Part shown: in pieces, positions 3,374-17,462 of the stretch
Layout of the letters: every line of letters begins with the position of its first letter
Numbering within the stretch: the first letter of the stretch is position 1
DNA from: Escherichia phage MarieHeimVoegtlin_Bas70
Sequence record: PQ850619.1
Strand: one strand, 5' to 3'
Length of the DNA stretch: 43,265 nucleotides
Notes under the pieces: model-generated
The model's database searches: none
The model's input: the letters and a program-made list of their open reading frames with translations, nothing else
What the model was told of the DNA's origin: nothing
Translations under genes and position numbers: made by a program

Positions 3374-4417
3374 ATGAGCTTACTTACATCCCTAATCAGC
3401 CATCAGATATGGCTGCAACGCACCGCATCCGGTGAGGTGAAAGACCTCACGCCGTTCATTCAGGAGATAAGGGATGAAATCAAACGGCAGGTGCTGTTAT
3501 TCGGTGACGACGGTCGCAGCACTGCGCGACTGAATAAACTGTTACGCGACCTGGAAGAAGCACTAACCGGTATTACGGGTGACTGGCAAACAAAGCTAAC
3601 AGACGACCTTAAGGAACTGGCGGCGTACGAGGCTGAGTGGAACGTAAAGACACTGACCGCCAACGTAGACGCGGAATTTGTTACGCCTACCGCTGAGCAG
3701 GTATGGGCCGCTGCCGAGTTTCAACCATTATCATTGAGCGACAAGCCCGTTGATTTCACCAAGCTGATGTCTGGATGGGGCGAAACGGAAGTAGCACGTC
3801 TTGTAACTGGAGTTAAGATGGGCTTTGTGCAAGGTCAAACCACACGGCAGATTGTTAAGAATGTTGTTGGCGCTGGTGGACTAGCCGACATCTCAGAACG
3901 TAACGCGACTACGGTAATCCGCACCGCGCTGTCCCACGTATCCAACGAGGCCCGTAACGAGACGTACCGCCAGAACGACGACATCATCGAGAAGTACGAG
4001 TGGGTGTCAACGCTTGACAGCCGCACCAGTACGATTTGCAGGGTCAGAGACGGGATGACGTGGGAAATTGGTAAGGGGCCGATGCCCCCAGCCCATCCGA
4101 ACTGCCGGTCGTGCACGGCTCCGGTAATCAGTTCCGAGTTCGACTTCCTCGATAAAGGCGCAAAACGCGCGGCTAAAGGCGCGGAAGGTGGCACTCAGGT
4201 AAGCGCAGACACCACTTACTACGAGTTCCTTAAACAACAACCGGCGTGGTTTCAGGACCAGGCGCTCGGCCCGGTGCGAGGTAAGATTTTCCGTAACAGC
4301 GGTATATCGCCGGAAGAGTTTCGCGTAATATCTGTAGATGGTTTCGGGAATCCGCTCACGCTTAAGCAGATGGCGGAACTCGATAAACGTGTTGCTGATT
4401 ATCTGAAAGGGGAATAA
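3374..4417 (+). CDS. head morphogenesis protein (Mu F-like / SPP1 gp7-like minor head protein)
   Basis: 347 aa ORF after the portal gene, the usual position of this family. ATG start. Confidence 0.65.
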   Translation: MSLLTSLISHQIWLQRTASGEVKDLTPFIQEIRDEIKRQVLLFGDDGRSTARLNKLLRDLEEALTGITGDWQTKLTDDLKELAAYEAEWNVKTLTANVDAEFVTPTAEQVWAAAEFQPLSLSDKPVDFTKLMSGWGETEVARLVTGVKMGFVQGQTTRQIVKNVVGAGGLADISERNATTVIRTALSHVSNEARNETYRQNDDIIEKYEWVSTLDSRTSTICRVRDGMTWEIGKGPMPPAHPNCRSCTAPVISSEFDFLDKGAKRAAKGAEGGTQVSADTTYYEFLKQQPAWFQDQALGPVRGKIFRNSGISPEEFRVISVDGFGNPLTLKQMAELDKRVADYLKGE

Positions 4418-4878
4418 TGATGGGCTTTTTCAAAGTAACTGACGTACCGTCTCGTCGCGTAGTCCAGTACGCCCGCGTGTCTGGCTCTGGCGAGAACGTG
4501 GTATTTATTGAGGACGAAAGTGTACTCGGTACACCGGTAGATGATATGCCGTTTGCAGATAAAACCGGTATTGCGTTGCCCGCCGCCGGTATGCTTTATG
4601 AAATTCCGTATCTGGCGGACGCTGGCGACGTGTATTTCTCTGCGCAACCGCAGGACGCTGAACTGGCGGGCGGCAGCGCAACCATCACTGTCGAGGTTAA
4701 GGCAGGCAAAGCGCCGTATTCTCTGACCTGGTACAAAGACGGTAAGGAAGTGGTGAATGCGCCTGAGGAGGCTCTGTCTCTGACGGTTAATGCGGTCGGC
4801 GAATACTTCGTTAAAGTTACTGATGCCGATGGAGTAGAGGCGGTAAGCAAAGCGGCGAAGGTTACTAAGCCAGAATGA
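4417..4878 (+). CDS. Ig-like domain protein (possible capsid decoration or accessory)
   Basis: 153 aa. C-terminal segment KAPYSLTWYKDGKEV...GEYFVKVTDADG matches the Ig-like strand pattern also seen in the 8189-8539 protein. TAATG overlap with the upstream gene. Confidence 0.5.
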   Translation: MMGFFKVTDVPSRRVVQYARVSGSGENVVFIEDESVLGTPVDDMPFADKTGIALPAAGMLYEIPYLADAGDVYFSAQPQDAELAGGSATITVEVKAGKAPYSLTWYKDGKEVVNAPEEALSLTVNAVGEYFVKVTDADGVEAVSKAAKVTKPE

Positions 4879-4883
4879 TAAAA

Positions 4884-4908
4884 GGCCCCATTATGGGGCC
4901 TTAGTTTT
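4884..4908. terminator. bidirectional intrinsic terminator
   Basis: ggcccc-attat-ggggcc hairpin flanked by AAAA on the 5' side and TTAGTTTT on the 3' side. Sits between convergent genes ending at 4878 (+) and 4908 (-). Confidence 0.6.
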
Positions 4909-5111
4909 CAACGGAATCTTGTGTTTAAATCCTGCTCATGGACAACCCTCAGAACAGTGTCATAATCCCCGTATCTTCCAGGTTCAAATATATCTAATGC
5001 CTTGTAAGCAGACATTGCGTCAGGGAAAACCTGCAGAACCTTTTTAACCCGGCACAAGTCACCGTCGAACTCTTCATCGAACTCTTGAACTACTTCGCAA
5101 ATTGCATACAT
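4908..5111 (-). CDS. hypothetical protein (antisense moron in head module)
   Basis: 67 aa. ATG with strong AGGAGGTG Shine-Dalgarno. Own promoter at 5136-5167 and terminator at 4884-4908. Opposite orientation to the surrounding structural genes. Confidence 0.55.
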   Translation of the reverse strand: MYAICEVVQEFDEEFDGDLCRVKKVLQVFPDAMSAYKALDIFEPGRYGDYDTVLRVVHEQDLNTRFR

Positions 5112-5167: not shown

Positions 5168-5442
5168 ACTATTTATTTACGTATTCCAGTTATTCCTCCG
5201 AATTGTAAATGTTGGAATAAACTATTCGAATAGTTGACTTTTCACTAAAAATATGATAAGCTCCACCTGAGCTTGTGAAGTATGAACAAGCGACCGCGGC
5301 GCGGGCAGGTAACGGAGCGGGACGTAAGTCCTGAGTGTAGTTACGCTGACGCGTTCGGAAGGGCCATACTCTATTGCTTGTGTAAAAAGTAACTGGTTTA
5401 CTGAGATTACGCCGTTTCTATGTTTAAATGATAAGGACTAGC

Positions 5443-5469
5443 GCCCCGCTTTATGGCGGGGCTTTACTT
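5443..5469 (+). terminator. hairpin, weak terminator or attenuator
   Basis: gccccgc-tttatg-gcggggc perfect 7-bp stem followed by TTTACTT, just upstream of the spanin gene Shine-Dalgarno. Confidence 0.35.
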
Positions 5470-5486: not shown

Positions 5487-5873
5487 ATGAATCTTAAAGC
5501 AACTGTCGTAGCAGGAGCATGTTTCATCATCCTGGTTTACGCACACGGCATCTACCAGTATCGCAGCGGATGGAACGAAGGCCGGGCTAATCTCGTTTCG
5601 CAGCAACAGCAGAAAGCACAGGCTGAGTTAGCGAAGAAAACACAACGGCAGCAGCAGGATGAATCGAAGGCCGCCGCCGCTGACAACGAAGGCAAGACGA
5701 AATCAGAGGTGATTACCCGTGAAGTCGTTAAGTACATTAAAACGCCTGGTCGCAGTGTGTGCGCTTTTGACCCTGAGCGCGTGCAGCTCAAGTCCCGCGC
5801 CGTCGCAAACGCCAACTCCATCCCCGGATACGACGATGATGCAGCCGCCGTGCAAACTGGCACCGCCAAGTAG
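5487..5873 (+). CDS. i-spanin (Rz-like inner membrane spanin)
   Basis: 128 aa. N-terminal transmembrane segment ATVVAGACFIILVYAHGIY. Then a Q/K/E-rich predicted coiled-coil periplasmic region. An overlapping +1-frame lipoprotein gene follows. Confidence 0.6.
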   Translation: MNLKATVVAGACFIILVYAHGIYQYRSGWNEGRANLVSQQQQKAQAELAKKTQRQQQDESKAAAADNEGKTKSEVITREVVKYIKTPGRSVCAFDPERVQLKSRAVANANSIPGYDDDAAAVQTGTAK

Positions 5874-5982
5874 CGACGCCGACGAGGATTTGGCTATCGA
5901 CGTTCAGAACGCTGAATGTGTACGGCAACTGAGGCTGAAAGTGTTTATGTTGCAGGATTACGTGAGGAATATTCTGGAATAG
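5719..5982 (+). CDS. o-spanin (Rz1-like outer membrane lipoprotein)
   Basis: 87 aa. GTG start with AGAGGTGA Shine-Dalgarno. Signal peptide ending in lipobox LSAC. Proline-rich mature region SSSPAPSQTPTPSP. Starts inside the i-spanin gene in another frame and extends past its stop. Confidence 0.55.
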   Translation: MKSLSTLKRLVAVCALLTLSACSSSPAPSQTPTPSPDTTMMQPPCKLAPPSSDADEDLAIDVQNAECVRQLRLKVFMLQDYVRNILE

Positions 5983-6064: not shown

Positions 6065-6769
6065 ATGAATCGTTTTTTACGTTATCCGTTCCAGGAAGAA
6101 GCTGGGGCAGAAGATAAAGCTGGTGGCGGTGACGCGCCGAAAATGTTCACCGCTGAAGAAGTTCAGGCGCTGATTGAGAAAGAAGTTGCCGGGCTTAAGG
6201 CTAATCAGGAAGCATTGTTGGCGGAGAAGAAAGAAGCCGCTCGCAAAGCAAAAGAGGCCGAAGAAGAACGGCAGCGCGCGCACCAGGAGGCGTTAAAAGC
6301 CGCTGGTAAGATGGACGAGTTCGAAAAGACGATTCGTAGCCAGTATGACCCGGTGTTAGCCGAGAAAGACGGTCGCATCTCCAGAATGGCAGAGCGTATC
6401 CTCGGCAGCGAACGTAAAGCGGTGCTAGGCTCTTTCGCGGGTGACTTTATTACCCCGGAAGCAGTGGACATTCTTGCGCCGTTCGTTAAGACTGAGTTCG
6501 AAGGCGATGATGTGGTTACTAAGTTTGTTGGTGCAGACGGTAACGTAATCACGACTGACCCGGAACAGTTCCGCAAATACCTGCGCGAACACAAGGCGTT
6601 TTCGCATTTGATTAAAGCAAATGCAGCTTCCGGCGGCGGGGCTTCCGGTAGCAAAGGCGGCGGGGCCGCACCAGCGTTTAAAGACATGAGTGAAGCGGAG
6701 CGTATCGCTCTGTACGAATCGAACCCTGCCGAATTTGAACGGCAACTTAAAGCCCTGAGGAAAAAATAA
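6065..6769 (+). CDS. scaffolding protein (putative)
   Basis: ATG at 6065 with AGGGGA Shine-Dalgarno; track ORF begins upstream at 6011. Charged A/E/K-rich helical sequence. Immediately precedes the capsid gene with an ATGA overlap. Confidence 0.5.
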   Translation: MNRFLRYPFQEEAGAEDKAGGGDAPKMFTAEEVQALIEKEVAGLKANQEALLAEKKEAARKAKEAEEERQRAHQEALKAAGKMDEFEKTIRSQYDPVLAEKDGRISRMAERILGSERKAVLGSFAGDFITPEAVDILAPFVKTEFEGDDVVTKFVGADGNVITTDPEQFRKYLREHKAFSHLIKANAASGGGASGSKGGGAAPAFKDMSEAERIALYESNPAEFERQLKALRKK

Positions 6770-7818
6770 TGGCAATTACTACTATCGGCGACATCGTAAC
6801 TGGTAAAGAATCGGTAATCCTGTCCTACATGACAGAGGACCCGGTAGAGAAAACCGCGTTCTTCCAGTCCGGTATCCTTACCTCGACTCCGTATGCCGCC
6901 GCTATCGCAAACGGCCCGTCCAACAAAGCGGTCCTGCCGTACTGGAAAGCTATTGATACCTCTATCGAGCCGAACTACTCGAACGACGTATATCAGGACG
7001 TCGCCACCCCGCGTAACGTGCAAACCGGTGAGATGGATGTTCGCGTAGCTTACCTGAACGAAGGTTTTGGTCAGGCTGACCTGACGGTAGAACTGACCAG
7101 CCAGAATCCGCTGCAATCCGTGGCTTCCCGTCTGGATAACTTCTGGCAGCGTCAGGCACAACGCCGTCTTATTGCTACCGCGCTCGGTCTGTACAATGAC
7201 AACGTAGCGGCTACCGATGCATACCACGAGCAGAATGACATGGTGATCGACGTTTCCGCTACTATGGGCTTCGACTCCGGTGCGTTCATCGACGCTACCC
7301 AGACTATGGGTGACGCGCTGATGGGTAACGGCGGTGAAGTGCTGGGGGCTATCGCGATGCACAGCTTCGTTTATGCGCAGGCTCGTAAGCAGCAGCTTAT
7401 CGACTTCATCCGTGATGCTGACAACAACACCATGTTCGCCACCTACCAGGGCTACCGTGTGATTGTTGACGACAGCATGACCGTAGTCGGTACTGGCGGC
7501 AGCCGTAAGTTCATCTCCATCATCTTCGGCAACGGCGCTATCGGTTACGGTGAAGGTTCTCCGTCAAACCCGCTGGAATACGAGCGCGAAGCGTCTCGCG
7601 GCAACGGCGGTGGCGTCGAAACCCTGTGGACCCGTAAGACCTGGTTGCTGCATCCGTTTGGTTACAGCTTCACCAGCGCAGTAATCACTGGCAACGGCAC
7701 CGAGACTATCGCCCGCTCTGCTTCATGGCAGGACCTGGCGAACGCTTCCAACTGGAACCGCGTTGTTGAGCGTAAGCATGTACCGATTGCCTTCCTGGTA
7801 ACTGGTGTCGGGGCTTAA
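6769..7818 (+). CDS. major capsid protein
   Basis: 349 aa ORF after the scaffold gene, followed by a strong hairpin terminator. Call rests on position and size. Confidence 0.65.
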   Translation: MAITTIGDIVTGKESVILSYMTEDPVEKTAFFQSGILTSTPYAAAIANGPSNKAVLPYWKAIDTSIEPNYSNDVYQDVATPRNVQTGEMDVRVAYLNEGFGQADLTVELTSQNPLQSVASRLDNFWQRQAQRRLIATALGLYNDNVAATDAYHEQNDMVIDVSATMGFDSGAFIDATQTMGDALMGNGGEVLGAIAMHSFVYAQARKQQLIDFIRDADNNTMFATYQGYRVIVDDSMTVVGTGGSRKFISIIFGNGAIGYGEGSPSNPLEYEREASRGNGGGVETLWTRKTWLLHPFGYSFTSAVITGNGTETIARSASWQDLANASNWNRVVERKHVPIAFLVTGVGA

Positions 7819-10854: not shown

Positions 10855-11267
10855 TGGGCTACTTTGAGGACTTAACAAAAGCGTTCGATGTTCCGCTGGT
10901 AGCCTTCGGAACCGCCAACGGCATCAAGGTTGCGCTTGAAAACATCGACGCGCCGACGTCAACCGATACGCCGTATCTGGCGAGTTACATGCTACTGGCA
11001 GATACCGAGCAGGCGGATTTGTTCTTCACTGAGCAACGCTCTGGTATTTATCAGGTAGACATTAACTACGCATCGGTGAAAGGTAGCGCGCCAATCAATA
11101 AAATGGCAGACTTACTTAACACGGCGTTTAAAGCAGGTAAGTCATTTTCGCGTAACGACATCTGCGCCGAGGTTCAATCGGTTAGCCTGGGGCCGCTGAT
11201 TGTAGAAAACGGATGGGCCAAACGACCATTGTCAATTAACTTTATTGCATTCACCAAGAGGCTGTGA
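10854..11267 (+). CDS. tail terminator-like protein (putative)
   Basis: 137 aa ORF immediately upstream of the major tail protein gene, overlapping both neighbours. Confidence 0.4.
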   Translation: MGYFEDLTKAFDVPLVAFGTANGIKVALENIDAPTSTDTPYLASYMLLADTEQADLFFTEQRSGIYQVDINYASVKGSAPINKMADLLNTAFKAGKSFSRNDICAEVQSVSLGPLIVENGWAKRPLSINFIAFTKRL

Positions 11268-12436
11268 ATATGGCTACAACTCCTTTTAAGGGCGCGAATA
11301 CCGCGCAATTCTATGTGGCGGAAACTACCCCTGGCGTAACACCGACTAACCCGGTATGGTCGCCGTTGCGTAACACGGGCGGCGTTCCCGCTGTAACCCG
11401 CGATGCACTGACTTCCAACGAACTGGACGGCAGCCGTGAAACTACATCCATCCGAACCGGTAACAAGCAGGTTAGCGGGGAGTATGCCATCGAACTTAGC
11501 TCTCGTAGCCAGGATGATTTCCTTGCGGGAGCGATGACTTCTACGTGGCAAGCTGGGGTAGAGATTACTGGCGCCGAAATTACGGTCGCCCCAGCAGGTA
11601 AAACATTCACCCGCGCTGCCGGTAGCTTCATTACTGACGGTGTAGAAGTTGGCGACCTTATTGCGTTCACCGACTTAACCGGCGACAACGCAAAACCGTT
11701 TATCGTGACCGCGGTTTCCGCTCTGGTAGTTACGGGCGCAGGTATTCAGCACACGCTGACAGCAGAGACAGTAACCACTGACGCAAAAACTGGCGACAAG
11801 CTGGAAACCGGTAACGCGTGTAAGACGTTCTCCATCCTGACGTGGTTCAAGGGCCAGTGTGGTAACCCGGACGCGTACATGCTGACCAAAGGTGTGGAAA
11901 TCTCTGGCTTTACCGTAGAGCAGGCGGTTAACGCCATGGTCACCGGCAGCTTCCCGTTCATCGGCCTGAGTCAGGAGATTCTTACCGCGCCGCCGTCTGG
12001 CTCTGATTTCTCTCGGGTTACGTTCACCGATGAGCCGTTCTCGTCGGTAGATGTGTCGGTGTTCGATGGCTCCACGCCGTTGCGTTGCGATACTCTCACC
12101 ATCACCAACGACAACGGAGCTTCCGCGCAGTTCGAACTCGGTAACAGTAGCGTGGCGTTCGTCGAACGTGGACGCGCAGCTAACACATTCTCTATCTCTG
12201 GCAAGCTGTACGACATGGCGATGATTCAGAAGTTTATCAACGAGCAGCAGGTAGAGATTAACTCTATTCTGGCAGGGGTAAACGGGGCTATGTCTTTCAG
12301 TTTGAAACGTGCAGAGCTTACGGCGGTTACACCTGAGATTGGTGGGCCTGAGTCAATCACTCAGTCCATTGAAGGCCAGGCTACCGGCAATCAGTACCAG
12401 TCGTCTATCGTAATTCAACGTATCACCTACGCATAA
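11264..12436 (+). CDS. major tail (tube) protein
   Basis: 390 aa T/S/G-rich ORF, last gene before a strong terminator and upstream of chaperone and tape measure genes. Confidence 0.55.
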   Translation: MNMATTPFKGANTAQFYVAETTPGVTPTNPVWSPLRNTGGVPAVTRDALTSNELDGSRETTSIRTGNKQVSGEYAIELSSRSQDDFLAGAMTSTWQAGVEITGAEITVAPAGKTFTRAAGSFITDGVEVGDLIAFTDLTGDNAKPFIVTAVSALVVTGAGIQHTLTAETVTTDAKTGDKLETGNACKTFSILTWFKGQCGNPDAYMLTKGVEISGFTVEQAVNAMVTGSFPFIGLSQEILTAPPSGSDFSRVTFTDEPFSSVDVSVFDGSTPLRCDTLTITNDNGASAQFELGNSSVAFVERGRAANTFSISGKLYDMAMIQKFINEQQVEINSILAGVNGAMSFSLKRAELTAVTPEIGGPESITQSIEGQATGNQYQSSIVIQRITYA

Positions 12437-12440
12437 AACT

Positions 12441-12466
12441 AAGGCCCCTTTCGGGGCCTTTTTCTC
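12441..12466. terminator. bidirectional intrinsic terminator
   Basis: aaggcccc-tttc-ggggcctt hairpin with AAAACT on the 5' side and TTTTTCT on the 3' side. Sits between convergent genes ending at 12436 (+) and 12465 (-). Confidence 0.7.
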
Positions 12467-12695
12467 ACTCATCAATATTACTTCGATACTCCCGTAACTT
12501 CTCCAGACTTTCAATTGCTTCTGCTAAGTCGGTTCCGGTGTCCTTATGCCCGCGAAGACCCATGCACAATAACTTCTTCAATGCGTGCTGTAGTGCGGGG
12601 TCACGGATGTCGAAGGCACGGAGAACATCGTAAACGTCTACGGTCATAGTGCTGCCGTGAGTGTTTGTCATTGTTCGGTTGTATTTTGAAGTCAT
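12465..12695 (-). CDS. hypothetical protein (76 aa), cassette member
   Basis: ATGA overlap with the upstream phosphoesterase gene, so likely co-translated. Last gene before the terminator. Confidence 0.5.
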   Translation of the reverse strand: MTSKYNRTMTNTHGSTMTVDVYDVLRAFDIRDPALQHALKKLLCMGLRGHKDTGTDLAEAIESLEKLREYRSNIDE

Positions 12696-13822
12696 CCCAG
12701 CATCTCCGGTGAAATAGTTAAACGTGCGACCTCGCCATATTCGGCGCTATAAGTAATTACATTTGCACTACGGCCTGACATCCACCCGCCGCGGGAGGCA
12801 TAGGCGTCTTTAGCCGCTAAGGTGCGGTGTTGCTCAACAATCATGTTACGGCTTTCTACAATCTTCTGGTGGTGCAGGTGGCCTACGTGGGCGTAGCTAT
12901 AGACACTCTCACCGAACGCTTTGCGGAATTTGGCAATCATAACCGGTTCGATAGCATCGAATCGCGCCTTATGCCCGTGGTGAAAGAACAACGTCGTTTT
13001 TCCGTGTTGCACCATCTTGTAAACATCCGGCGACGTATCGACAATCACTCGGCTGTCGTTCGAATATAAAACTGTGAACATTTCAGCCAGCCATACAGAG
13101 CCTACAGGGTCATGGTTCCCCTGTACGATAAGCAAGCGAACATTTTTATGTTTAACCAGTGCCATATCTACAACACGGCGTACCATACGAATCATGTAGC
13201 GGACGAGTTTCTGGTAGCGAGTGTCTGCGTCCAACACGTGACGCGACTCAGGTGTAACGGCATCCAGACTATCGAAGTGCGCGAAATCACCCAGCAGGTT
13301 AATAACTCCTGTTCCTGCATCCGGTGCTTTCTGAAACGCCGCGTCGAACCAACGAGAGAACAGGTCTTCCGCAATCTTTATATCCCAGTCGTCGCCGCTC
13401 TCGTCGGCCCAGGCAAGCATACCGAGATGGAAATCAGATACCGTGTAAAGATTGAGTAGCTTGTCGTCGCGTTTGGCTCGAGTCGCTTTAGCCGGCGCAA
13501 CTGGCGTAATCTCTGACTTCATGCCTTCAATCACGGCTTTCATCAACTCGACCTGACGTTCAGCGTCGGTGTCTGTCTTAACCCATTGCAACTTAGTATT
13601 GCCGAACTCGTCTACCAGAGACGACGTCCCTTTAATCTTGTAGCCGTCTGGGACAAGGTGGCTAACGTCACGCCCGTGGCCTACACCTTTCTTAGCCAGC
13701 TTCGCTTTACGGATACGAATAACTCGGTCTGAGATGCCGTATTTACGGGCGATGTCTACATTCTTCATCCCGGCGTTCAATTCTTCCTGTAACTGTTCGT
13801 CGGTTATTTTCTTCTGGGCCAT
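12692..13822 (-). CDS. HTH domain-calcineurin-like metallophosphoesterase fusion
   Basis: 376 aa. N-terminal helix-turn-helix NVDIARKYGISDRVIRIRKAK. Then ordered metallophosphoesterase motifs: SDFH (DxH), LLGDFAHFD (GDxxD-like), QGNHD (GNHD/E), HHGH, VGHLHH (GHxH). Encoded antisense to the tail genes. Confidence 0.7.
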   Translation of the reverse strand: MAQKKITDEQLQEELNAGMKNVDIARKYGISDRVIRIRKAKLAKKGVGHGRDVSHLVPDGYKIKGTSSLVDEFGNTKLQWVKTDTDAERQVELMKAVIEGMKSEITPVAPAKATRAKRDDKLLNLYTVSDFHLGMLAWADESGDDWDIKIAEDLFSRWFDAAFQKAPDAGTGVINLLGDFAHFDSLDAVTPESRHVLDADTRYQKLVRYMIRMVRRVVDMALVKHKNVRLLIVQGNHDPVGSVWLAEMFTVLYSNDSRVIVDTSPDVYKMVQHGKTTLFFHHGHKARFDAIEPVMIAKFRKAFGESVYSYAHVGHLHHQKIVESRNMIVEQHRTLAAKDAYASRGGWMSGRSANVITYSAEYGEVARLTISPEMLG

Positions 13823-13887
13823 GCTTACTTCCTCGTGTTTAGGATTTGTCCTATTTAACCACAGTGGATTCCTTTAAATAAAGGCAA

Positions 13888-14214
13888 CTATTTACTTTCT
13901 GCGCCTATCGCCCACCCTGTCATTACCATTTGCAGACGGGTGGCTGTCAGTAGGCTATAGAAAGCATCTCCGTTTTTCTCTACCGAACGTATCACTGTGT
14001 AGGTTACGGCCTGCGGGGGTAGGCCCGATTTACCAACCTCCACGGCGGCCTCACACTCGCGAACTGTAGAGTCCTTGAACGCCTTTACAATAGTAGGGTC
14101 GGCTTTATCAAGCACACCAGAAGTCATAAGAACAGATTCACTAAATACCTGTTCGCACGGGGCTCCAAAAGTAGCAAAAGACATAAAACCCAGAGCTAGT
14201 ACTAATTTACGCAT
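13888..14214 (-). CDS. small secreted/periplasmic protein (108 aa)
   Basis: N-terminal signal-peptide-like MRKLVLALGFMSFATFGA. GAGGAA Shine-Dalgarno. Own promoter at 14240-14271. Confidence 0.55.
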   Translation of the reverse strand: MRKLVLALGFMSFATFGAPCEQVFSESVLMTSGVLDKADPTIVKAFKDSTVRECEAAVEVGKSGLPPQAVTYTVIRSVEKNGDAFYSLLTATRLQMVMTGWAIGAESK

Positions 14215-14239
14215 AATTATTTCCTCAGTAAGTTACATG

Positions 14240-14271
14240 TGAATAGTACCCTATTATATTGGGGTGTGCAA
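14240..14271 (-). promoter_or_regulatory. sigma70-like promoter (TTGCAC-N17-TACTAT) with embedded AATAG-N4-CTATT palindrome
   Basis: 32 bp identical to 5136-5167. Positioned about 25 nt upstream of the 13888-14214 start codon on the minus strand. Confidence 0.55.
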
Positions 14272-14378
14272 GTAGTGTGCTAGAATAAGTTTGCGCCTAG
14301 TGTCGCACACGAAAAGCGGGTGGTTCCCGCCTGGCGCATTAACCATAACCAGTAACCTCTTAACCAAAGGACTAAAGA

Positions 14379-14795
14379 ATGAAACTTTCTGATTTCTATT
14401 TTGCCGACCGCCACGCCGCCGGTACTAAAATGCCTATCCTTCTGCCCAGTGGTAAAGATTCCGGTGAATGGTTGCAGGTCATCGGCCCCGATTGTGACGC
14501 TGGTGTTCGTGCGGGCCGTGCCTACACAACGGCAATTCGACGCCTTACGGAAGAACTTGCGCCATTAGATAAAGAGTGCGAGGCGCTGAATAACTGGGCG
14601 CGCTATAATGATGAGAAGGGCTGGCGGGTGATGGACCTGAACAAGCAGCTTGCCGTGGAAATCGTCACCGGTTGGTCATTCGACGAACCATTCAGCAAAG
14701 AGGCGCTTGCTAACCTGTTCGACCAGTACAGTGGGTTGGCAGAGGCCGTAGTTAAGCATCACACCGATAGCCGTGAGAAACTCTCGGAAAAGTAA
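14379..14795 (+). CDS. tail assembly chaperone (lambda G-like)
   Basis: 138 aa ORF directly upstream of the tape measure gene. Ends ...CTC TCG GAA AAG TAA, with an overlapping -1 frame open to 15157. Confidence 0.6.
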   Translation: MKLSDFYFADRHAAGTKMPILLPSGKDSGEWLQVIGPDCDAGVRAGRAYTTAIRRLTEELAPLDKECEALNNWARYNDEKGWRVMDLNKQLAVEIVTGWSFDEPFSKEALANLFDQYSGLAEAVVKHHTDSREKLSEK

Positions 14796-15157
14796 AAGCG
14801 CTGTATGAATTTGCGCAATGGTGCTTTGTCGACCGCCACAAACGTAAGCAATTCGACGACATCGCGGCGGGCCACCAGGCGGCTTTGATTGCAATGGGCG
14901 TGATTAAAGAACCGCAGATGAAAGAAGCGACGGGGCCGGAATGCCCCGTTTCTCTTATCGACGTGTTCGAGAAATACCGTGCCATTAAATTCCTACAGCG
15001 CGAAACAGATGATACTATCGTTATAATCCCGCGCGATGCGCTCAAATGGCAAGATTTGGTAGCGTTTCGTGATGTCGCCGGTTACGGCATAAGTTTGTTC
15101 GAAGCCGAGGTTATCATGGGCTTAGACGGAATATTTGAGGGCAGAGAAGATGGCTGA
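14379..15157 (+). CDS. tail assembly chaperone frameshift product (G-T-like), -1 programmed frameshift
   Basis: The -1 frame is open from 14777 to 15157 with no ATG until 14894. It overlaps the last codons of the G-like ORF. Candidate slip site GGAAAAG at 14786-14792. The product ends inside the tape measure start region. Confidence 0.5.
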
Positions 15158-17462
15158 TACGGCTTCCCTAATCGCCAGAGTAAAAACAGAAGGTGCTGAC
15201 GTAGCTGCCAAACAGCTTGACGCTATGGCGTCGTCTGCAGACCGCGCTGATACCGCGGTAAACAAGCTGACTCCGGACGTTAATAAAGTAAACTCCGCTA
15301 CGTCTAAAGCGGCTTCTGACGGTTTCGCTAAGTTCCGTAACGCTGCCGGGCAGGTAGGCTTCCAGGTGCAGGACATGGTTGTCCAGCTGCAATCCGGTAC
15401 GTCAGCATTTGTGGCAATAGGCCAGCAAGGTTCGCAACTTGCGGGTGCTTTCGGCCCTGGTGGTGCTGTGCTTGGGGCCGTAATCGCACTAGCGTCGGCT
15501 GTTGGTGGAGTACTGTATAAATCACTAACCGAAGCAGAAGGCAGTTCAAAAGACCTCGAAGCCGCGCAGAAACAGTTAAAAGATACTTTCCAGCAAACGG
15601 CATCTGGCTCTCTCGAGCTGACAGACGGCCTTATCCAGCTTACCCAAATCAGCAGAGAAGCAGCGGAGACTCAGCTTGCTCTGGCTAAGGCTAACGCGGA
15701 CCTTATCGCGCAGCAAACCGCTAAAGCTGTTCGTGAAGATGCCGAATCATGGGAAACGTGGAAAGCCTCCACGGCGTCGGCGATTAGCCAGTATGATGCA
15801 TTAGTCTCTAAGGGCGCAGATGTAGGCGACACATTAGAAAAACTCGGCGGCACTTACGAGGGCAACATCGTAGGCGTCAACATGCTGGCGCAGAATATCG
15901 CGGAGCTTAGCAGTAAGTTCGGAGTTAACCGTGACCAGGCGCTGGAGATGATAGCGGCGCAGAGTGCGTTTAACAAAGAGCCAACCGCCGAGAATGCCCG
16001 TCGCATCGCCGATGTGTTTACCGACTGGCTCGGTAACACAAAACAGTTGAACCCGGAACTTATCCGCCTGACGGACAACGCCAACAAGAACGCCACGGCA
16101 CTGGAGAACGCGGAGAAGTCAGCAAACGCGGCGGCAGAGGCCCAAAAGAATCTTGGTCGCAACGTCAACTCAACCACGCAGAGATTCCAGGAACAGAACG
16201 AAGCTATCGTCAAAAACCAGCAAATCGCCATCTTAAGCGACCGTGAGCGTATCCGGGCGCAAGCTGAACTTGATAAACAGGCGTTCGCTAAACGTGAAGC
16301 CGTCACCAAAGAACAGATAGCCGCGTATAATGCGGCCCGCGACGCGGAAGCGCAGCAAGACATCGCCCGCATTGACAAGACCGAGAAAGAGAAGGCCGAC
16401 CGCGAGGCTAAATCGAACGAGGAACGTCTGGCGGCACAAGCCAAACGCGAAGAAACAGCGGCACAACGTCAGAAAAAAGCGGCGGAAGATTTCCTGGCTA
16501 CTGTCGACCGCACAACCGGAGACGAAATTTCACGTATCACAGCGGCAGAAGAACAGAAACTGGCGAAACTTGAAGAGTTCAACCGCGCCGGAACGATAAG
16601 CCAGCAGCAGTACGAAAACGCCAAAACTCAAATTATGCTCACCGCCGAGCAGGCCAGACAGGAAGAACTGGATAAGAAAAGAAAAGAGCAGCAGGAAAAG
16701 CAGCAGAAAGGCGACGACTTCATGGCCCAGATTATGGGTCAGAACGCCGCTGAGCTTGAGCTTCTCGACATCCAGGAACAGCAGAAACTGTCGGTAGCAG
16801 ATAAGTACCGCGAGCAGGGTTTGATTAGTGAGAAGCAGTATCAGGCTGCGCTTAATGCCATCAACGAGCAGTACGCCACGAAGCGTGCCGACGCAACGGC
16901 AACGGCCTTCGGTAACATGGCCTCAAACATCGGTTCGGCTTTGGGCGAGGCTTCTGGCGCGTACAAGGCATTCGCTATCGTGCAGGCCACTATAGCCACG
17001 TACACCGCGGCTATTGAGGCGTATAAGTCAACAGCGGCTATCCCTGTAGTTGGCCCGTTCCTGGCTCCTGTAGCTGCCGCTGCTGCCGTTGGGGCGGGTA
17101 TGGCGCAGATTTCCGCTATCAGGTCCGCACGTGAACAGGGCGGACAGTTATCCGCGGGGCAGGCTTCAACCATCGCCGAACGCGGTAAACCAGAAGTTAT
17201 CATGCCCGCTGGTGCGTCACGTGTACGCACCGCACAGCAGATGAAAGAAATTATGGGGCAAAACGGGTCTTCTTCCGGACCGTCTAATGTTACTATCGTA
17301 AACAACACGAGTTCTCAAATCGGCAACGTATCCACTGAGCAAGATGATGAAGGCCGTTTGCGTATCATCATCGAGGAGCAAGTGGCTGCCTCTTTGCGGA
17401 ACAGTAACAGTAAGATTAGCAAGGCCCGCAAGGCCACAAGAAATGCGCCGGGGTTTAAATAA
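15150..17462 (+). CDS. tail tape measure protein
   Basis: 771 aa from ATG 15150 (track ORF starts at TTG 15135). Long A/Q/E/K-rich predicted coiled coil. Directly after the chaperone pair. Confidence 0.8.
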   Translation: MADTASLIARVKTEGADVAAKQLDAMASSADRADTAVNKLTPDVNKVNSATSKAASDGFAKFRNAAGQVGFQVQDMVVQLQSGTSAFVAIGQQGSQLAGAFGPGGAVLGAVIALASAVGGVLYKSLTEAEGSSKDLEAAQKQLKDTFQQTASGSLELTDGLIQLTQISREAAETQLALAKANADLIAQQTAKAVREDAESWETWKASTASAISQYDALVSKGADVGDTLEKLGGTYEGNIVGVNMLAQNIAELSSKFGVNRDQALEMIAAQSAFNKEPTAENARRIADVFTDWLGNTKQLNPELIRLTDNANKNATALENAEKSANAAAEAQKNLGRNVNSTTQRFQEQNEAIVKNQQIAILSDRERIRAQAELDKQAFAKREAVTKEQIAAYNAARDAEAQQDIARIDKTEKEKADREAKSNEERLAAQAKREETAAQRQKKAAEDFLATVDRTTGDEISRITAAEEQKLAKLEEFNRAGTISQQQYENAKTQIMLTAEQARQEELDKKRKEQQEKQQKGDDFMAQIMGQNAAELELLDIQEQQKLSVADKYREQGLISEKQYQAALNAINEQYATKRADATATAFGNMASNIGSALGEASGAYKAFAIVQATIATYTAAIEAYKSTAAIPVVGPFLAPVAAAAAVGAGMAQISAIRSAREQGGQLSAGQASTIAERGKPEVIMPAGASRVRTAQQMKEIMGQNGSSSGPSNVTIVNNTSSQIGNVSTEQDDEGRLRIIIEEQVAASLRNSNSKISKARKATRNAPGFK

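Follow-up and report, generated by a model that had tools for sequence, protein, structure and literature searches.

The 43.3-kb sequence of Escherichia phage MarieHeimVoegtlin_Bas70 (PQ850619.1; 43,265 nucleotides, here called the window) is essentially the complete genome of a Kagunavirus (Guernseyvirinae) coliphage. Between its rightward genes for the tail tube protein and the tail assembly chaperone lie three genes in the opposite orientation, coding for a secreted protein of 108 amino acids (p108), a protein of 376 amino acids in which a helix-turn-helix (HTH) domain precedes a metallophosphoesterase domain, and a protein of 76 amino acids (p76). An earlier note on this DNA, made from its letters alone, took these genes for a candidate host-interaction or counterdefense module built around an enzyme that might dephosphorylate host proteins, cut DNA, or destroy nucleotide second messengers. 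The locus poses two questions: on which substrate does the enzyme act, and do its neighbors belong to it? On balance, the enzyme, which is similar to Mre11 and DP1, is probably a metal-dependent nuclease that acts on DNA and serves the phage's DNA and nucleotide metabolism; its neighbors are occupants of two interchangeable accessory slots rather than subunits of a module.

An HTH domain fused to a metallophosphoesterase core

The 376-amino-acid protein opens with a three-helix HTH domain (residues 8 to 44; positions 13691 to 13801 of the window), continues with a β-hairpin and a helix (residues 61 to 104), and ends in the metallophosphoesterase core (residues 119 to 376; positions 12695 to 13468). 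Every motif from which the fusion had been proposed is present in the core, namely, D130-x-H132, G178-D179-F-A-H182-F-D184, G235-N236-H237-D238, H281-H282-G-H284, and G314-H315-L-H317-H318; together they make up a complete metal-binding set, whose second motif is of the Mre11-like GDxxH type. In an alignment with 96 relatives of 32 to 48% identity, D130, H132, G178, D179, N236, H237, H282, G314, and H317 are invariant and H182, D238, and H315 are conserved in at least 90% of the sequences. The HTH domain is likewise found across the family, whose members match the profiles Sigma70_r4_2 (E = 1.5e-9), GerE (E = 2.4e-8), HTH_1, and HTH_8.

Profile searches and structure prediction, which had been proposed as checks, support the fusion. 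Because Pfam Metallophos_2 (22.1 bits; cutoff, 27) and Metallophos (17 bits; cutoff, 21.5) both stay below threshold, membership in the superfamily rests on the motifs and the fold. An NCBIfam search found nothing, and comparison of the sequence with PDB chains, both singly and as a profile, gave nothing significant (best profile E value, 0.14 or worse). The AlphaFold2 model, computed on the alignment of relatives, has a mean predicted local distance difference test score (pLDDT) of 93.5 and a predicted template-modeling score (pTM) of 0.82. Foldseek aligns it with 162 PDB chains at E ≤ 0.001. Essentially all of the 50 listed have the metallophosphoesterase fold, with Thermotoga maritima Mre11 (E = 7e-9) and, at E = 2e-8 to 3e-8, the PolD DP1 proofreading exonucleases at the top. 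A fold search of BFVD returned solely unnamed or uncharacterized viral relatives, among which the A1 protein of phage T5 (see below) was not identifiable. We conclude that the enzyme belongs to the calcineurin-like binuclear metallophosphoesterase superfamily, within which the modeled fold leans toward the nucleases, though not decisively.

The sequence is a full-length member of PHROG 704, annotated "DNA repair exonuclease" (E = 1.5e-162; residues 3 to 375 aligned to positions 1 to 389 of the 390-position profile). This group also contains T1 ORF16 ("exonuclease") and K1H gp19, which have the same architecture as the protein in the window with no structural difference, and its name is an annotation that goes back to similarity to SbcD. 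The likeness of the enzyme to Mre11/SbcD and PolD DP1, its best structural matches, comprises the shared motif set, including GDxxH, and a context of DNA metabolism, and at the sequence level it is confined to the motifs. Those proteins, however, have a capping domain and a partner (Rad50/SbcC or the PolD large subunit), whereas the phage enzyme instead has the N-terminal HTH domain and β-hairpin.

The same motifs bear on the proposal that the enzyme is a protein Ser/Thr/Tyr phosphatase which, like lambda phosphatase, acts on host proteins. Such an enzyme would have the superfamily fold in common with the one in the window, but the PPP signatures GDxHG, GDxVDRG, and GNHE are absent from the latter, which has SDFHLG, GDFAHFD (motif II), and GNHD (motif III) instead. 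Moreover, no PPP structure occurs among the 50 best PDB matches listed, and a protein phosphatase would leave the HTH domain and the replication gene context unexplained. We therefore regard this activity as extremely unlikely.

A core gene with a preference for DNA metabolism neighborhoods

That the enzyme is an unusual accessory gene is not supported. It is a highly conserved core gene: of 50,697 phage records, 2042 (~4%) have a tblastn match to it, in 1960 of which the match covers at least 80% of the protein, and a search of 1.84 billion representatives yields 4567 family clusters at 50% identity. Its holders comprise the Guernseyvirinae, Dhillonvirus, the Drexlerviridae including T1, Klebsiella siphophages (Skenny, NJR15, and relatives), Jedunavirus, Vibrio and Alteromonas phages, and roseophages. 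Identity to the protein in the window is 100% for Bas75_0023, 93 to 99% within Kagunavirus (~95% for K1H), and 44% over 375 amino acids for T1. A literature search on phage metallophosphoesterases in the Drexlerviridae, Kagunavirus, and Jerseyvirus and on host DNA degradation by T1 found no study of this protein.

The gene neighborhoods of the family are informative as to its function. In T1, the enzyme gene lies downstream of genes for a helicase, a RecU-like resolvase, and Dam, with several small genes in between, and in Jedunavirus it is downstream of the primase gene. Alteromonas phage P24 has the order resolvase-like nuclease, enzyme, Dmp-like deoxynucleoside monophosphate (dNMP) phosphatase, and dNMP kinase. 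In three metagenomic phages, the enzyme gene is the last of a replication/recombination block; such a block contains genes for a RecE-like protein (DUF3799), AAA_24, FEN, or a primase-helicase or is convergent to DNA polymerase and helicase genes. The commonest association of the family is with DNA and nucleotide metabolism. Since the homologues elsewhere are mostly found beside such genes, the location within the tail module is a peculiarity of the Guernseyvirinae, and the antisense placement among tail genes, earlier offered as a defining feature, does not hold for T1, Jedunavirus, or Alteromonas phage P24. Taken together, these observations indicate that the enzyme gene is most likely a core DNA metabolism gene of many virulent phages, mostly siphoviruses, with genomes of ~40 to 50 kb.

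In Escherichia phage 590B (MW722821; locus L003, positions 3477 to 4607), the enzyme gene is intact and unannotated, and an HNH homing endonuclease gene lies between it and the gene for the 76-amino-acid protein.

Comparison with characterized phage metallophosphoesterases

Two groups of phage metallophosphoesterases with known effects on DNA offer points of comparison. The A1 protein of phage T5, a predicted metallophosphatase, is necessary and sufficient for degradation of the host DNA; its structural neighbors are double-strand-break repair nucleases and polymerase proofreading subunits, it is encoded in the pre-early region, as are A2, which binds DNA, and the dNMP phosphatase Dmp, and an interaction of A1 with RNA polymerase has been reported (bioRxiv 10.64898/2026.04.02.716235). 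The enzyme in the window has the same structural neighbors as A1, its fused HTH domain would provide a DNA-binding function like that of A2, and a Dmp-like gene follows its homologue in Alteromonas phage P24. A1, in contrast, is 556 amino acids long, has a different N-terminal region, and is reportedly largely confined to the Demerecviridae. A function in common with A1 would thus be an analogy within the superfamily.

The second group comprises proteins of cluster A mycobacteriophages. The metallophosphoesterase gp48 of phage A10ZJ24 degrades DNA in vitro and in vivo. This DNase is early and toxic and silences host defense genes, and without it the phage fails to replicate in Mycobacterium tuberculosis (PMC12287305). 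These proteins (A10ZJ24 gp48 and Bxb1 gp47/L5 gp54) are also phage metallophosphoesterases encoded among replication genes, but they are short and devoid of an HTH domain, with motif I already at residue 10 in gp48 and a total length of 255 amino acids in Bxb1 gp47. Cluster A mycobacteriophages are not prominent among the tblastn matches of the enzyme. We considered direct homology of the enzyme to T5 A1, T5 A2, or Bxb1 gp47, but the matches are at the motif level only. In one comparison with the T5 A1 family, hmmsearch gave an E value of 2e-3.

A predicted DNA nuclease and its alternatives

Of the three substrates that had been offered for the enzyme, DNA is favored because of the HTH domain, the gene context, and the nearest folds, while the signatures of protein phosphatases are absent and nothing specific points to cyclic nucleotides. 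The fold, the motifs, the HTH domain, the size and distribution of the family, the gene contexts, and the mosaic flanks are shown here; that DNA is the substrate, when the protein is expressed, and what it does for the phage are inferred. The N-terminal domain, similar to those of LuxR and of sigma-70 region 4, would tether the enzyme to DNA; the protein would be expressed from a host-type promoter of its own and would cut or resect DNA. One option is that it breaks down the host chromosome and so feeds the nucleotide pool of the phage, in which case destruction of the chromosome would also silence host genes, including inducible defenses, and a salvage pathway would be completed by the genes for dNMP kinase and phosphatase that are often found after the enzyme gene. 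The other option is that it processes intermediates of phage replication and recombination. The recurrent linkage to dNMP kinase and phosphatase genes fits breakdown of host DNA followed by salvage and fits equally well a general clustering of nucleotide metabolism genes. A role specifically in degradation of the host chromosome, modeled on T5 A1, is no firmer than a tentative proposal. It is similarly a possibility to be held with some doubt that the enzyme is the long-missing host chromosome-degrading nuclease of T1-like, Jersey-like, Dhillonvirus, and related phages, in effect a fused counterpart of T5 A1 and A2.

Several points weigh against a nuclease of this kind. The gene context is not uniform, as Dhillonvirus and one Vibrio phage have the enzyme gene near lysis and terminase genes. 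In the Foldseek results, Rv0805, purple acid phosphatase, and YfcE come close behind the nucleases, with template-modeling (TM) scores of 0.35 to 0.47, and the fold search does not separate nucleases from cyclic nucleotide phosphodiesterases or acid phosphatases. The enzyme lacks the C-terminal capping domain of Mre11/SbcD, its model ending with the core at residue 376, and neither the window nor the Bas75 annotation contains a gene for a Rad50/SbcC-like partner. The phage already encodes another exonuclease (418 amino acids; phrog_69) and a resolvase. Likeness to the characterized phage proteins is slight: an hhalign comparison of the enzyme family alignment with 12 T5 A1 homologues covers 31 columns around GNHD..S.WL (E = 1e-3; probability, 20%), and that with Bxb1 gp47 is at the level of motifs (probability, 7%). 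The HTH domain could instead serve in transcriptional regulation, and the nuclease activity of the family is a prediction. As to the phage's own 418-amino-acid exonuclease, we found no similarity between it and the enzyme and rejected the idea that the two are paralogues.

The HTH domain is also the starting point for a different view, in which the protein is primarily a transcription factor acting at promoters of the phage or the host, with a phosphoesterase that is regulatory or secondary, as might be imagined from the pleiotropic T5 A1 and Bxb1 gp47. The likeness of the domain to LuxR, FixJ, and sigma-70 region 4, weak similarity (E = 8.8e-4) to a PHROG named "late transcriptional activator," and the reported interaction of T5 A1 with RNA polymerase (bioRxiv 10.64898/2026.04.02.716235) speak for it. 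Against this, the catalytic residues are invariant over ~100 sequences of 32 to 48% identity, which argues that the enzymatic activity is under selection, and no repeated sites resembling operators were found, though no search was aimed at them. We consider a protein that is a transcription factor first unlikely.

Another alternative is the counterdefense function originally suggested, that is, a phosphodiesterase that destroys the signals of CBASS, Pycsar, Thoeris, or type III CRISPR systems. The superfamily does include cyclic nucleotide phosphodiesterases, of which Rv0805 ranks 10th among the fold matches (E = 7.8e-8), and a promoter of its own would be compatible with early expression. The known anti-signaling nucleases Acb1 and Apyc1, however, have other folds, and the family-wide DNA-binding HTH domain would have no role in such an activity. 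The gene is moreover a core gene rather than a sporadic accessory one and in several lineages stands in or next to replication genes. None of the three cassette proteins has a match in PADLOC, whose profiles describe host defense systems and not phage antidefense proteins, and phenotyping of the BASEL phages reports no unusual defense resistance of Kagunavirus (PMC11990801). Direct destruction of defense signals thus appears quite improbable. More generally, with mosaic flanks around a conserved DNA metabolism enzyme, the concept of a dedicated counterdefense module is not supported; a counterdefense effect is possible indirectly, by way of host DNA destruction and by analogy with the phage nucleases described above.

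Should the enzyme be a nuclease for host DNA degradation or replication, a core gene of several widely used groups (T1-like, Jersey-like, Dhillonvirus, Klebsiella Webervirus, and Jedunavirus phages) would acquire a function, and this would extend the "scorched-earth" strategy of the T5 and mycobacteriophage metallophosphoesterases to one of the most widespread uncharacterized enzyme families of virulent enterobacterial siphophages. Such a nuclease could also be relevant to the way in which host DNA is broken down when T1 infects.

The flanking genes occupy two mosaic slots

We mapped the neighbors of the enzyme gene in 64 IMG/VR loci that encode its close relatives. The layout in the Guernseyvirinae is chaperone gene, slot A, enzyme gene, slot B, and tail tube gene (Table 1), and none of the 59 loci with full coverage has a disrupted enzyme gene. 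Slot A contains p108 in 11 loci and, in 29, an Imm-like membrane protein of ~59 amino acids, whose representative, Shelanagig gp24, matches Pfam Imm_superinfect (E = 2e-15). A divergent secreted homologue of p108 with two cysteines is found in three of five further loci; slot A of L046 encodes an unrelated protein with a signal peptide, and that of L031 has no convincing open reading frame (ORF). Slot B holds p76 alone (15 loci), p76 with an HNH gene (5 loci), p76 with an antirepressor gene (4 loci), or genes for a HAD_PNKP phosphatase and a dNMP kinase (16 loci), or is empty (3 loci); p76 and the phosphatase-kinase pair never co-occur in the mapped loci. The types of slots A and B combine freely, with the combination seen in the window (p108 and p76 alone) recurring in 4 loci. 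Thus, the three genes assort independently across the 64 related loci, which does not support a coinherited module, and comparison of the relatives for presence or absence of the cassette, as had been suggested, returned a divided answer: the enzyme is constant, and both flanks are mosaic. For phage engineering, this means that the enzyme gene is fixed and the flanking slots are naturally exchangeable cargo.

Table 1. Features of the cassette and its surroundings (window coordinates)
Feature	Position	Strand	Description
Tail tube gene	11264-12436	+	Pfam Phage_tube_2, E = 7e-38
Intrinsic-terminator hairpin	12441-12460	bidirectional	AAGGCCCC-GAAA-GGGGCCTT; stem kept in K1H and 590B, loop alone differs
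p76 gene (76 amino acids)	12465-12695	-	ORF; occupies the downstream slot (B), whose two possible contents exclude each other
HTH-metallophosphoesterase gene (376 amino acids)	12692-13822	-	PHROG 704, AlphaFold2 model; constant gene of the locus
p108 gene (108 amino acids, secreted)	13888-14214	-	Signal peptide; occupies the upstream slot (A), which has two alternative occupants
Leftward sigma-70-like promoter candidate	14243-14271	-	TTGCAC (14271-14266), 17-nucleotide spacer, TACTAT (14248-14243)
Rightward extended -10 promoter candidate	14259-14286	+	TTGGGG, 16 nucleotides, TGcTAGAAT (14278-14286); just upstream of the structured leader
int-alpA-like structured RNA	14290-14354	+	Rfam RF02996; three helices; ~25 nucleotides upstream of the chaperone start codon
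Tail assembly chaperone gene	14379-14795; frameshift part, 14885-15157	+	Two-part gene

The phosphatase-kinase pair of slot B suggests one more function for the enzyme, namely, RNA or DNA end healing. Clostridium thermocellum Pnkp heals ends by means of a calcineurin-type domain. Acting like this domain as a 2',3'-cyclic phosphodiesterase or 3'-phosphatase, the phage enzyme would mend transfer RNA or DNA broken by host nucleases, jointly with the HAD phosphatase and the P-loop kinase of the K1H-type relatives. The arrangement lends this some appeal, as a HAD_PNKP phosphatase gene (Pfam, E = 6.7e-20) and a gene for a P-loop protein directly follow the enzyme gene in 16 of 40 loci, including the K1H-type Kagunavirus phages. 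The P-loop protein (184 amino acids in K1H), however, resembles dNMP kinase (phrog_139; E = 2.6e-46) and not polynucleotide kinase; the middle gene in Alteromonas phage P24 encodes a Dmp-like dNMP phosphatase; neither the cassette nor, according to the Bas75 annotation, the genome contains a ligase gene; and the window is without both partner genes. End healing is therefore a distinctly unlikely function.

As the earlier note had it, the two small proteins are without recognizable function: neither has a match in Pfam, NCBIfam, or PADLOC, and p108 has no PDB fold match. Among the PHROGs, p76 matches phrog_2452 best (E = 2.4e-36) and five related families besides, in every case at the C-terminal end. 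The p76 domain is present in 773 phage records; some encode it as a protein of its own, and in Acinetobacter phages and Nonagvirus it makes up the C-terminal domain of proteins of 193 to 251 amino acids. One of these, a 251-amino-acid protein of Salmonella phage SE1 (Nonagvirus; L011, positions 1919 to 2674), is encoded inside a 7-deazaguanine DNA modification cluster, between genes for a QueE-like protein and an amidotransferase, and this placement hints at a link between the p76 domain and nucleotide or DNA modification metabolism.

Two other origins for p76 were considered and rejected. It is not a remnant of the K1H ATP-binding gene, as the sequences are unrelated and replace each other cleanly. 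The idea that it corresponds to the C-terminal domain of DUF3310/T7 gp1.7 was attractive because slot B would then always encode a kinase; the resemblance is by eye only, and an Acinetobacter protein shares its N terminus with a PHROG that has a gp1.7-like C terminus. BLASTP, hmmsearch, and two hhalign runs, however, gave E values of 0.03 or worse, out of register, and the matches of p76 to Pfam, at best E = 0.03 or worse, did not include DUF3310.

The p108 protein has a signal peptide (residues 1 to ~18), for which cleavage is consistently predicted after TFG/SFA. The rest is a helical domain of ~90 residues with two cysteines, C20 and C54, that are invariant in the alignment. Its AlphaFold2 model is all helical (pLDDT, 79) and retrieves nothing from the PDB below an E value of 1.8. 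It is present in 98 phage records, with detectable homologues limited to the Guernseyvirinae, and divergent homologues are encoded at the same position in other loci (p108 hidden Markov model against L074, E = 7e-7). Its presence tracks the lineage of the chaperone and tape measure genes of the window type in 11 of 11 loci, in both Kagunavirus and Jerseyvirus (positions 13888 to 17462 compared with L012 to L074). The tape measures of the p108 loci align over 700 amino acids (93 to 100% identity in Kagunavirus and ~75% in Jerseyvirus), whereas in all 29 Imm-type loci the chaperone is 42 to 53% identical and the tape measure can be aligned only in part. The alleles of the tail tube and enzyme genes assort independently of this split. 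On account of the cosegregation with the tape measure and the positional equivalence to the Imm-like gene, the slot A proteins of both types are probably factors of the superinfection exclusion type, and their specificity may be matched to the chaperone/tape measure type; alternatively, the cosegregation could reflect simple physical linkage or a recombination block.

Transcription signals

A Shine-Dalgarno sequence precedes each of the three leftward ORFs, all of which are confirmed between the tail tube and chaperone genes, and the start codon of p76 overlaps the stop codon of the enzyme gene as ATGA, so that translation of p76 is coupled to that of the enzyme. The terminator that had been assigned to the cassette at 12441 to 12466 corresponds to a real and conserved hairpin, which ends the leftward cassette but is bidirectional, with the stronger T run on the plus strand, after the rightward tail tube gene.

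The promoter claimed for the cassette at 14240 to 14271 is borne out in part. Its Jerseyvirus equivalent is TTGCAT-17-TATTAT, and thus the hexamers and the 17-nucleotide spacing are shared with Kagunavirus, while the candidate itself scores under the threshold of a consensus scan whose yield is at chance level overall (4 sites against 2.9 expected). Because the hexamers and spacing are conserved while the spacer sequence diverges, we accept TTGCAC-17-TACTAT as a plausible promoter of the cassette. A promoter-like site that the scan reported at 14243 to 14216 was rejected, as its -10 element would then fall on the ribosome-binding site and start codon of p108.

On the plus strand, TTGGGG-16-TGcTAGAAT is a putative promoter for the rightward genes, with its TAGAAT block conserved across loci. 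The leftward and rightward candidates are interleaved back to back between 14243 and 14286, each with its -35 element within the spacer of the other. It can be conceived from this arrangement that the two transcription units compete for RNA polymerase or mutually exclude its binding.

An int-alpA-like RNA in the chaperone leader

The leader of the chaperone gene contains an RNA element that scores 35.8 bits with the Rfam int-alpA model RF02996, which is exactly the gathering score (E = 3.7e-5; full model length). Matches below this threshold (31.6 to 34.2 bits) are found at the equivalent site in L013, L046, and K1H, with either chaperone type, and the element was located at positions 3617 to 3681 (-) of L013, 3457 to 3520 (-) of L046, and 5400 to 5464 (+) of L002. 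In an alignment of 13 distinct sequences, 94% of the cells are paired, 4 pairs have double changes, and compensatory changes are seen in three helices; the covariation score of 0.29 compares with 0.12 in shuffled alignments, none of 500 of which reached it, and with at most 0.11 in slid controls. With the gathering score reached and the base pairs covarying, the element belongs to RF02996, and it is conserved across the Guernseyvirinae. The usual int/alpA gene context is absent here. Its G-U pairs are sensible on the plus strand only, and hence the element belongs to the leader of the rightward chaperone and tape measure genes, not to the cassette. Four (T/A)AACC repeats lie 3' of it, ahead of the ribosome-binding site.

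Genome context and other leftward ORFs

Over positions 11200 to 15200, the window is 99.9% identical to Escherichia phage AnnaReinhart_Bas75 (BASEL) and 89 to 97% identical to other Kagunavirus phages, including K1H. The structural genes run rightward from position 1 to ~24.2 kb, and the replication and recombination genes (helicase, resolvase, DNA polymerase, Gp2.5-like single-stranded DNA-binding protein, exonuclease, and primase-helicase) are in the leftward region from ~24.4 to 36.3 kb. The cassette is not the sole interruption of the rightward structural genes, as had been supposed: a leftward ORF of 67 amino acids at 4908 to 5111 (-) is annotated in Bas75 (Bas75_0006, hypothetical protein). 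It lies within the head module, near the Rz-like spanin genes at 5487 to 5982. A further leftward ORF, of 385 amino acids (6205 to 7362, -), is without annotation in Bas75 and lies opposite the genes for the scaffold and the major head protein, in antisense orientation; in all likelihood it has arisen by chance in GC-rich coding sequence.

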